Assembly (NCBI GenBank): GCA_963848295.1
Contig: CAWKDB010000002.1
Coordinates: 832,001-896,000, forward strand
DNA length: 64,000 nt
Direction: 5' to 3'
DNA from: an uncultured delta proteobacterium
GTDB lineage: Bacteria; Myxococcota_A; Polyangia; Haliangiales; Haliangiaceae
Shown: piece after piece, positions 28,055 through 30,018 of the stretch
Numbering within the stretch: the stretch's first letter is position 1
Layout of the letters: the number at the start of each line of letters is the position of its first letter
Notes under the pieces: generated by a model
What the model saw: the letters and a program-made list of their open reading frames with translations, nothing else
Databases searched by the model: none
What the model was told of the DNA's origin: nothing
Made by a program: the position numbers and the translations under genes

Positions 28055-28360
28055 CTGCCGCTGCCGCTGCCGCTGCCGTCGCCGGAGCCGCTGCCGTTGC
28101 CGCTGCCGCCGCTGTCGCCGTTGCCGTCGCCGCTGCCGAGTCCGTCGCCGCTGCCGTCGCCGAGTCCGTCGCCGTTGCCGTCGCCGCTGCCGTCGCCGCT
28201 GCCGTCGCCGCTGCCGCTGCCGAGTCCGTCGCCGCTGCCGTCGCCGTTGCCGTCGCCGCTGCCGTCGCCGTTGCCGCTGCCGCTGCCGAGTCCGTCGCCG
28301 CTGCCGTCGCCGTTGCCGTCGCCGTTGCCGTCGCCGAGTCCGAACAGGTGGCCGCTGCCG
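28055..28360. repeat. Hexamer tandem array A, (CCG-TCG/CTG/TTG)n with recurring CCGAGT units
   Basis: About 50 imperfect 6-bp units read directly. Confidence 0.95.
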
Positions 28361-28409
28361 ACCCCGAGTCGGGAATCGCGGCCGACGTGATCGACCGCGG
28401 GCGATCGGC

Positions 28410-28733
28410 TCAGTGCGTGAGGCGCCAGAGGATCGCGCGGACGTGGTCGAGCGGCTCGTCGACCGCCGCGAAGTCCTCGGCGGTGATGACGCCGCGGGCG
28501 CGCGCGATCAGGAGGGCGGTCGTGAGCTCGCTCGCGCTGCCGGCGGCGCGGCGATAAAAGTCGGGGCGATCGAGCCCGACGCGCATGCGGCCTTCGCTGA
28601 GGTTGAGCGCGACGCTCTCGCCGGCGCGGGCGATCTCGTCGGCGAGTGACTTGCGCGTGCGGCGCACCTTGGCCTCGACAGGGGCGAGCTGCTGCAGGAC
28701 GGCGAGGGCGAAGTCGAGGGCGTAGAACGACAT
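28410..28733 (-). CDS. Four-helix-bundle protein (23S rRNA IVS protein / Avd-like family), copy 1
   Basis: [19 protein letters not shown]...AAGSASEL matches the family pattern L.DQ..RA..SI..NIAEG...A.GS..E; GGAGG RBS. Confidence 0.88.
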
Positions 28734-28736
28734 GGT

Positions 28737-28969
28737 GATCCTCCGAAGTGAGTGGCCGATGGGTAGGAACGTCTCTCTCTCGCCCGTCGCGCCGCACTCG
28801 CGCGGGTCCCGTGACGAGCGCGGGCACTACGTCCCGCACGCGCCGGTCGATTCAACTCCGCGGCGGTCGATCGCACACGTCGGCGCACTCGGCGCTCGGC
28901 GCGGGACAAGCGCGAAGCGGCGCAGGGCGAGAGAGACGTTCCGCCCACCGGCGCGAGCGAAGGAGCATC
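28737..28969 (-). ncRNA. Putative structured leader/ncRNA 1 (long imperfect hairpin) upstream of four-helix-bundle gene 1
   Basis: Nested complementary arms GCCGGTGGG/CCCATCGGC, GGAACGTCTCTCTCGCCC/GGGCGAGAGAGAGACGTTCC, GCGCCGC/GCGGCGC, GTCCCG/CGGGAC, CGAGCGC/GCGCTCG; core homologous to 29403-29555. Confidence 0.6.
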
Positions 28970-28986
28970 GAGTGCTCGAAGGCCGG

Positions 28987-29366
28987 TCGCCGTCGCTGTT
29001 GCTGTTGCCGTTGCCGTTGCCGTGGCCGTCGCCGTTGCCGTCGCCGTTGCCGTTGCCGTTGCCATTGCCGTCGCCGTCGCCGTCGCCGTCGCCGTCGCCG
29101 ACGCCGTCGCCGTCGCCGTCGCCGTTGCCGCCGACGCCGGTGCCGCCGCCGATGCCGATGCCGACGCCGGTGCCGCCGCCGATGCCGATGCCGACGCCGA
29201 TGCCGCTACCGACGCCGATGCCGCTGCCGACGCCGATGCCGCTCCCGCTGCCGACGCCGATGCCGACGCCGATGCCGCTGCCGACGCCGATGCCGATGCC
29301 GATGCCGCTGCCGACGCCGCTGCCGCCGCCGATGCCGACGCCGATGCCGACGCCGATGCCGACGCC
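28987..29366. repeat. Hexamer tandem array B: left half CCGTYG type, right half CCGAYG type, 3-nt register break near 29130
   Basis: Read directly; TTG CCG CCG ACG junction at 29125-29136. Confidence 0.95.
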
Positions 29367-29367
29367 A

Positions 29368-29593
29368 CCTTTCGCCCCTCGCGGCTTCCGATCGCCGGGC
29401 CGTCGCCCTGCGCCGCTTCGCGCCAGCACCGCGCCGAGCGCCGAGACCACCGACGCCTGCGAGGGGCCGCCGCAGAGTTGGGTCGACCGACGCGTGCGGA
29501 GATCTGTGCTCGCGCTCGTCACGGCGCCGGCGCGAGTGCGGCGCGACGGGCGAGACGGCCCCGGCGATCGGTGCGCCGCTCATCCACGAAAGG
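29368..29593 (+). ncRNA. Putative structured leader/ncRNA 2 (long imperfect hairpin) upstream of four-helix-bundle gene 2
   Basis: Nested arms CCTTTCG/CGAAAGG, GCGGC/GCCGC, CCGATCGCCGGGCCGTC/GACGGCCCCGGCGATCGG, GCGCCGC/GCGGCGC, CGAGCGC/GCGCTCG. Confidence 0.6.
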
Positions 29594-29600
29594 CAACACC

Positions 29601-29921
29601 ATGCTCGATGTCCTCGCTCAATCGCTCACCGTCCTCGAACAGCTCGCCCCGGTCGAACCGAAACTTCGCTCGCGCCGCAAGTCGCTCGCCGACGAGATCG
29701 GCCGCGCCGCGGAGAGCGTCGCGCTCAACATCGCCGAGGCGAGCGCGCGCGCCCGGCTCGATCGGCCCGACATGTTCCGCCGCGCGTTCGGCAGCGCGCG
29801 CGAGCTGTCCGCGGCGCTGCTCATCGCGAAGGCGCGCGGCTACATCACCGCCGACGACTTCGCCGCGATCGAGGCGCCACTCGATCGCGTGCGCGCGATG
29901 CTGTTCCGGCTCACGCGGTGA
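29601..29921 (+). CDS. Four-helix-bundle protein (23S rRNA IVS protein / Avd-like family), copy 2
   Basis: [19 protein letters not shown]...AFGSAREL; 68/106 identities to copy 1 by hand, ungapped; AAAGG RBS. Confidence 0.88.
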
Positions 29922-29979
29922 GCGCGGGCGTCGGCGTTGATTCCGCACCTTTGCCGGATTCAAACCATGTCCGTACCGG

Positions 29980-30018
29980 CCGACGCCGAAGCCGTATCCG
30001 ACGCCGAAGCGGTCGCCG
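29980..30018. repeat. Short degenerate CCG-NNN hexamer array downstream of four-helix-bundle gene 2
   Basis: CCGACGCCGAAGCCGTATCCGACGCCGAAGCGGTCGCCG. Confidence 0.55.

Follow-up and report, generated by a model that had tools for sequence, protein, structure and literature searches.

Ten copies of a very probably mobile unit pairing TIGR02436 four-helix-bundle genes with polar hexamer arrays in a soil myxobacterium

To our knowledge, proteins of the TIGR02436/S23p family, several structures of which have been solved, have no known role outside DGRs, and the long bacterial repeats with units of 6-7 bases have no agreed origin. REP, REPIN and BIME sequences, associated with RAYT, are extragenic, located after stop codons, multi-copy and hairpin-forming, and produce no duplication. 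The Coxiella burnetii 23S rRNA intervening sequence (IVS), which encodes S23p, is characterized in the accessible part of its description as selfish, with variable-number heptamers upstream of the ORF (PMC4990558). In the portion of the report available to us, Avd of DGRs is a positively charged protein on which the DGR reverse transcriptase (RT) depends, and all five protomers of its pentamer take part in binding an RNA stem-loop (10.1101/2023.10.23.563531). For intergenic direct repeats of heptamers, such as TAACTGA, a repeat-binding protein has been suggested as the mobile part (PMC4679880, available in part). We found no description of cassettes like those reported here in searches that covered mainly openly accessible papers, main texts only.

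The window analyzed here is a 64,000-nt stretch of the genome of a soil myxobacterium (G000; 7.8 Mb, 11 contigs). It contains one of the ten copies (E01) of an element of about 2 kb that extends from immediately past the stop codon of a pilZ-like gene to the end of an array on the right (28044-30018) and consists of seven parts, in the order array, gene A, leader, shared array, leader, gene B, array. The left array (28055-28366, plus strand) begins 12 nt past the host stop codon and includes about 50 GCCGNN units with the spacers mostly TC, CT and TT. The short 3' trailer of gene A (28367-28409, minus strand) is the variable end of the element; a trailer of 150-185 nt is common to five other copies. 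Gene A (28410-28733, minus strand) encodes a 107-aa TIGR02436/PF05635 four-helix-bundle protein, as judged by profile matches and a structure model, and is preceded by leader A (28734-28975, minus strand), an extended hairpin in which a 4x4 internal loop is conserved and which stops directly 5' of the Shine-Dalgarno-like GGAGG. The shared middle array (28987-29366, plus strand) has about 60 GCCGNN units, with length and spacers unique to each copy. Leader B (29368-29600, plus strand), a hairpin homologous to leader A, stops directly 5' of AAAGG and is followed by gene B (29601-29921, plus strand), which encodes a 106-aa TIGR02436/PF05635 paralogue of protein A according to profile matches. The conserved 3' trailer of gene B (29922-29965, plus strand), with a small hairpin, is the fixed end of the conserved part, and the short right array (29971-30018, plus strand) has about 7 units, with up to about 50 in other copies. 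TRF placed arrays at 28048-28336 and 29006-29366 and a further, weak array (score 36) at 29979-30010. All seven parts marked in an earlier note on this DNA are present at their positions. The back-to-back twin architecture described there applies to the genes and leaders, which are mirror images, but not to the arrays: all three read GCCGNN on the plus strand, the core being fixed and the spacer specific to the copy, and both halves share the middle array.

Proteins A and B score 45-53 bits against PF05635 and TIGR02436, above the cut-offs (33.8 and 24), and are 64% identical to each other (68/106, the previously reported value; 69/106 in a global alignment). The model of protein A (pLDDT 94.9) matches Xcc0516, BT_0352 and Avd with TM scores of 0.83-0.88, and from Xcc0516 and Avd we infer that A and B may form a pentameric ring; a prediction for the A+B complex scored 0.00 (controls not folded). 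The net charges of the two proteins, +1 and +4, are weakly basic. TRAP-type ring proteins read RNA repeats, and the fixed word GCCG with a free spacer resembles such TRAP-like reading by analogy. Together with the stem-loop binding of the Avd pentamer, this resemblance lends support, by analogy only, to a binding role; the predicted targets of A and B are the repeats or the leader hairpin.

Leader hairpins 1 and 2 fold better than all 200 of their shuffles (z -5.6 and -5.3), and leaders A and B are 83% alike over 153 nt. Across 34 leaders of relatives, 97% of the cells in the core stem are paired and the 4x4 internal loop is nearly invariant. Changes on both sides were detected in 9 of the 24 stem pairs, compared to 3.0 in shuffles (0/500 as high) and at most 4 in slid controls; this count was obtained for a structure derived from the same alignment of related sequences and does not distinguish RNA from single-stranded DNA. 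The alignment indicates that the leader hairpin covaries across these 34 relatives.

Like the Coxiella IVS, the twin combines a protein of this family with short tandem repeats near the ORF, but it is located outside rRNA and has two genes; its tracts are direct rather than inverted, so that, unlike in the IVS, there is no closing stem for RNase III, and its genes evolve under purifying selection (see below), whereas S23p is described as decaying in the accessible part of PMC4990558. With the Avd of DGRs, the twin shares the predicted fold (TM 0.85 to 4DWL) and a stem-loop beside the gene as a candidate ligand, but the identity is 10%, the proteins are weakly basic, there is no linked RT, and the repeats of window positions 27500-30600 include no template/variable repeat pair with adenine-specific differences. 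The twin is similar to REP, REPIN and BIME sequences in being extragenic and multi-copy, in following stop codons, in having hairpins and in showing no duplication, but differs in carrying two genes, in having polar tandem hexamers instead of palindromic REP units, and in the lack of a linked Y1 gene. Polar short tandem repeats between genes also characterize the TAACTGA-type repeats, but in the present case they are linked with a gene cassette and vary in their spacer, and the available part of PMC4679880 names no four-helix protein. The element is a TIGR02436/PF05635 family member that lacks the defining features of both IVS and DGRs and has no terminal inverted repeats (TIRs) of MITEs. The present analysis adds a composite unit in ten copies, its empty sites, the selection on its genes, the rule of polarity in pairs and the exchange of flanks.

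Head-to-head A+B twins are present at ten unrelated loci of the genome, spread over 3 contigs and with distinct flanks and arrays; the genome further includes a diverged twin, a diverged single cassette and an internally deleted fragment. We found neither A nor B of the main type on its own in the genome, and the single cassette and the internally deleted copy are the only exceptions to the absence of gene-less leader copies. The paralogue check proposed in the earlier note came out as it had anticipated, all copies of the subfamily in the genome carrying both leader and arrays. Mean identity between copies is 93% for the genes and 93-95% for the leaders (range among copies, 90-99%); intergenic length varies from 586 to 883 nt, and every copy has arrays of its own length and spacers around an unchanged core. 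All ten copies have a full-length gene A (in one, it reads past the usual stop to 123 aa) and gene B is intact in nine (in E02, it is cut at residue 44), that is, 19 of the 20 twin genes are full length. Mean dN/dS is 0.16 for gene A (10 copies) and 0.12 for gene B (9 intact copies), and 38 of the 59 single-copy codon changes are synonymous, compared to an expected fraction of about 0.3 (p below 1e-7). Judging from these substitution patterns, both genes are under purifying selection.

Protein-coding neighbours were identified at all 10 copies, and the gene calls around the twins are host-type genes. Eight of the 10 main twins, as well as the diverged one, have a left array that begins within about 30 nt of a host stop codon, and the right end of E03 abuts a stop codon. 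The B-side end is fixed, with the hairpin followed by TCAAAC in 7 of the 9 copies with an intact gene B, whereas the position of the A-side end shifts by more than 100 nt between copies. Neither a TIR nor a junction or target duplication was detected at any of the ten twins, for copies that are old, with ends that dissolve into arrays, and in comparison with genomes of other species.

The flanks were compared with those in five or six genomes of the same genus, at about 75-80% DNA identity. Gene A with its leader had no match at E 1e-40 in any of the 6 comparison relatives, no matches to A or B were found in the 20 fetched flank regions of relatives, and the distribution in the genus is patchy, with a DNA match in 17 of the 90 genomes. 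At the E10/E08 junction, convergent stop codons overlap or are no more than about 45 bp apart in all five relatives; at E09, the stop codons are 5 bp apart in G084, and other relatives have other genes or DNA there. The flanks of E03 are colinear, with an unaligned gap of 107-388 bp in 4 relatives versus about 2.2 kb here. The outer flanks of E05, E06 and E07 are colinear as well, and G000 is 4-5 kb longer at these sites, accommodating the twin and two to four other genes. The interval at E04 is of similar size in relatives, with other content, and the flanks of E02 lie on different contigs there. For E01, rubrerythrin lies about 55 bp after dacB in G078 and G084 (2 of the 3 fetched relatives). 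The empty sites in relatives are mostly devoid of an array, the sole repeat hairpin, a gene-less one, occurring at one site in G011. The dispersed copies and empty sites thus bear out the earlier suggestion of a module that spreads as a unit, with the amendment that the mobile unit is the whole head-to-head pair and not each cassette, and we are highly confident that the twin is a mobile multi-copy unit.

An empty site between pilZ and rubrerythrin, where the earlier note had proposed to look, was not found: none of the 29 pilZ-orthologue loci (25 with more than 1.1 kb inspectable) has rubrerythrin or the gene of this element downstream, in a count that, like alignment A1, includes the unpublished L018, L041 and L078 of G010, on which no conclusion depends. 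An inversion of a 5.4-kb block in G000 explains why the two genes are not adjacent in relatives. In relatives, the region upstream of rubrerythrin (30094-30513 in the window, plus strand) directly follows dacB, and from the sequence comparison, the matching empty junction for E01 is the one between dacB and rubrerythrin. In G011, this junction (L109:2800-3010) holds a gene-less hairpin with mirrored hexamer arms. At L080 (G018), a hexamer run follows the stop codon of a pilZ-like gene and precedes the apparent end of a classic four-helix gene, possibly an independent insertion. At E04, E06 and E07 (L084, L086 and L087), a host gene located on the twin's variable side has a different position in relatives, as if it had been carried along or inserted at a hotspot.

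The inverted block (22616-28043) comprises dacB, SBP, a small ORF, rarA and the pilZ-like gene, and E01 marks its right breakpoint; in relatives, pilZ usually faces the gene located at 18283-19785 here. The left breakpoint (19800-22600), between dacB and the pilZ-facing gene of relatives, contains an RHS-like gene fragment and an IS630-like element. The earlier note had seen no RT, transposase or rRNA gene nearby. RT and rRNA genes are indeed unlinked, but there is a mobile-element ORF with HTH_33/HTH_23 matches at 21599-22252, about 5.8 kb from the unit and outside it, which we take to be IS630-like. Rfam yielded no real match over the window copy, with one chance miRNA match (E 4.1) and no rRNA. 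No sigma-70-like promoter or T-tailed terminator was recognized in 27900-30200, in 68% GC DNA where such a search is uninformative. Long ORFs crossing the arrays were rejected as genes given that the frame differs between copies.

In the assembly, two other copies, E08 and E10, have exchanged flanks. All five relatives have the flank on the B side of E10 joined to that on the A side of E08, and the flank on the B side of E08 next to that on the A side of E10; this pattern is the one expected of one crossover between two copies. In the near-complete G011, the E08 and E10 sites are inverted relative to each other, 1.4 Mb apart, so that the product of a single crossover would be a viable inversion. 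Read from the assembly, the twin copies are likely the crossover point of a chromosome rearrangement; low-depth contigs from 4 DNA runs neither span the element nor contain a credible joint across it, and weigh neither for nor against. Two copies with swapped flanks and a third at an inversion breakpoint suggest that such cassettes reshape chromosomes. The closest copy also changes from part to part of the element, and incompatible site pairs account for 38% within 30 nt versus 57-62% farther apart (9 copies; 0 of 2000 permutations as low). This change of neighbours and the local compatibility point to exchange of sequence between copies, making them recombinant mosaics.

Across the arrays, G precedes CCG in 849 of 959 units and all 16 spacers are present; strand bias of the arrays relative to GC skew is not evident. 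The genome also contains 26 long GCCGNN arrays without a cassette, some probably within genes, under a crude coding/non-coding assignment with several borderline cases; these are possible seeds or scars. One such free array, of 28 units, is located at 45762-45928 of the window.

Beyond this genome, we collected 99 related loci, 80 from GTDB genomes and 19 from metagenomes, many cut by contig ends and some possibly redundant: 67 single genes, 20 tail-to-tail pairs and 12 head-to-head pairs. By record titles, the matches are mostly from Myxococcota, with some from Acidobacteriota and others, and among 50 pattern matches in viral contigs none was confirmed as a viral relative. An upstream tract of at least 8 units was present at 63 of the 75 scorable loci, compared to 62 of 2000 random windows. 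Among the 33 pair records, 17 were scorable at both genes, and in all 17, sense-strand polarity is opposite, i.e., the tracts have one chromosomal direction; 11 of these share a tract, which makes the result trivial, and the six tail-to-tail pairs, two of them from one genome, are the non-trivial cases. In each of these six, the outer tracts run one way. In one Kofleriaceae MAG (JAWKQX), 10 head-to-head loci have a partner gene that comes from a distant clade in a quick protein tree, so multi-copy twins arose at least twice.

As to how the unit reaches new sites, we tentatively favour, at somewhat below an even chance, spread that relies not on a transposase carried by the unit but on host recombination via the same-direction GCCGNN tracts, helped by four-helix proteins that bind the repeats or the leader. 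The outer tracts would act as direct repeats through which the unit loops out or gets copied; it would then enter another short CCG-repeat seed directly after a stop codon, and slippage would afterwards rewrite the array spacers, with the GCCG core kept because the protein reads it. Both genes would be required in cis, given that lone halves are missing. The basis for this route comprises the ten dispersed twins with empty junctions in relatives, the same-strand tracts, the one direction of the outer tracts in the six tail-to-tail pairs, the lack of detected TIRs and duplications, the mosaic copies, the E08/E10 flank exchange and the 26 free arrays. Mosaicism and flank exchange, however, show recombination between existing copies, not the route to new sites. 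Most empty sites are array-free, so target seeds would have to arise first, and exchange between adjacent tracts would be expected to remove A or B singly as well, but no copy of this kind was found. Also against this route are the movement of another cassette family by IS4-type ends in the same genome (see below) and the weakly basic proteins, compared to the positively charged Avd.

A further-reaching proposal, which we regard as doubtful, is that of a class of selfish elements free of integrase, transposase and RT, in which paired Avd-like ring proteins, each partner taking one strand, would recognize a constant word of four bases in the polar microsatellite that belongs to them. They would build or protect its tracts and would employ these as transportable homology for entry into new sites. 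The locus ties the S23p/TIGR02436 family to long hexamer repeats, offering ten natural variants, defined empty sites, a candidate binding word (GCCG) and a covarying leader; the word with its free 2-nt spacer and the empty sites make binding and mobility directly testable. If ring proteins with portable tracts are indeed involved, the cassettes would seed simple-sequence repeats and chromosome rearrangements, and there would be one function for orphan S23p/TIGR02436 proteins and one origin for unexplained intergenic 6-7-base repeats.

An enzyme acting in trans could replace recombination through the tracts. In the most viable, if rather unlikely, version, the twin is a non-autonomous cassette, similar to MITEs or mobile insertion cassettes, that was moved by a DDE transposase, with the ends and duplications since erased by array turnover. 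Like the IS4-family MITEs and mobile insertion cassettes in the available part of PMC2266710, the twin is small and multi-copy, lacks a transposase, carries passenger genes and has empty sites; unlike these, it has a ragged end and shows neither a TIR nor a duplication. A second, distant family of TIGR02436 four-helix cassettes in G000 (K family), about 540 bp with mirrored TTGACC/TGAACC hexamer arms, does fit: its 17-bp TIRs conform to the IS4-subgroup consensus (PMC2266710, Table 1, in the part available), and perfect 10-bp duplications containing CTAG flank two insertions, one full copy and one gene-less copy. Four-helix cassettes that have hexamer arms can thus be carried by DDE transposases. 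There are 15 DDE_Tnp_1 matches in the genome, the twin copies are about 7% diverged, old enough for the ends to have eroded, and in the other Kofleriaceae MAG, IS50-consensus ends lie between the B trailer and the right array at 3 of the 10 twin loci. Against such transposition, no TIR or duplication is seen at any of the ten twins, the A-side boundary differs by more than 100 nt from copy to copy, and the ends of two multi-copy IS types in the genome (9 loci) do not resemble the twin ends.

Movement as single-stranded DNA by a HUH (Y1, RAYT-like) nuclease is a further reading, which we consider improbable. REP-type HUH elements have a fixed right end with a sub-terminal hairpin, a variable left end, no duplication, and insertion after stop codons; the twin has the fixed B end with a hairpin, the variable A end and no duplication, the variable-side gene at E04, E06 and E07 maps elsewhere in relatives, and there are nine Y1_Tnp matches in the genome. 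However, all Y1 genes are more than 60 kb away from any twin, several have their own upstream hairpin, unlike that of the twin by eye, as their flanks also look different from the twin ends, and extra genes are present on the fixed side too. No RT or Y1 gene adjoins a twin in G000.

A retro-element, with an Avd-like pentamer binding the leader RNA and recruiting a host group II intron RT to copy the unit, while slippage adds repeats, is less probable still. The shared Avd fold, the stem-loop binding by Avd and the dependence of the DGR RT on it (in the available part of 10.1101/2023.10.23.563531) agree with this scheme, as do the combination of one fixed and one ragged end, the three group II intron RTs, which are all the RT matches over the cut-off in the genome, and introns at K-family ends. 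But the genes are divergent, so that a single transcript would contain one gene antisense, and the scheme is further weakened by the absence of a linked RT, of a template/variable repeat pair and of confirmed viral relatives noted above. We give as little credence to domestication, in which the host would retain a regulator pair at each site and rearrangements would have dispersed it. The predominance of synonymous single-copy changes and of full-length genes would be expected in this case, but gene conversion between copies can mimic per-site selection, the neighbours are unrelated at each site, the same sites are empty in relatives, and the distribution in the genus is patchy. A single local inverted duplication, the alternative set out in the earlier note, or an assembly artefact is barely credible, despite the failure of the low-depth contigs to span the locus, given ten copies at 90-99% identity with distinct flanks and arrays, leaders and arrays in all copies, empty sites, and similar pairs in other genomes.

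The gene-bearing copies of the K family are located at C2:270986-271527, C2:797060-797604 and C10:3467453-3467988, and the gene-less copies at C10:4408267-4408347 and C10:2116764-2116838. No autonomous IS with K-family ends was found in G000 or among 30 loci from relatives; the K TIR pattern, with at most one mismatch, is present in 23 of the 90 other genomes of the genus, in several of them beside other hexamer words. Group II introns are inserted exactly at a K-cassette TIR at C2:797062, C10:3467986 and C10:2116766, and intron pieces interrupt other K copies. An RT beside the four-helix gene at C2:795818 was rejected as a DGR, being part of a group II intron next to a K-family cassette. In the other Kofleriaceae MAG, IS50-consensus ends abut twin-family arrays at L133, L135, L141, L144 and L146, with the end of a transposase-like ORF at L135 and a gene-less TIR element at L141. 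The Y1_Tnp loci of G000 (L005-L012 and C10:3040575) encode RAYT-like proteins of about 240 aa, and several of these genes are preceded by a shared conserved hairpin of about 170 nt.
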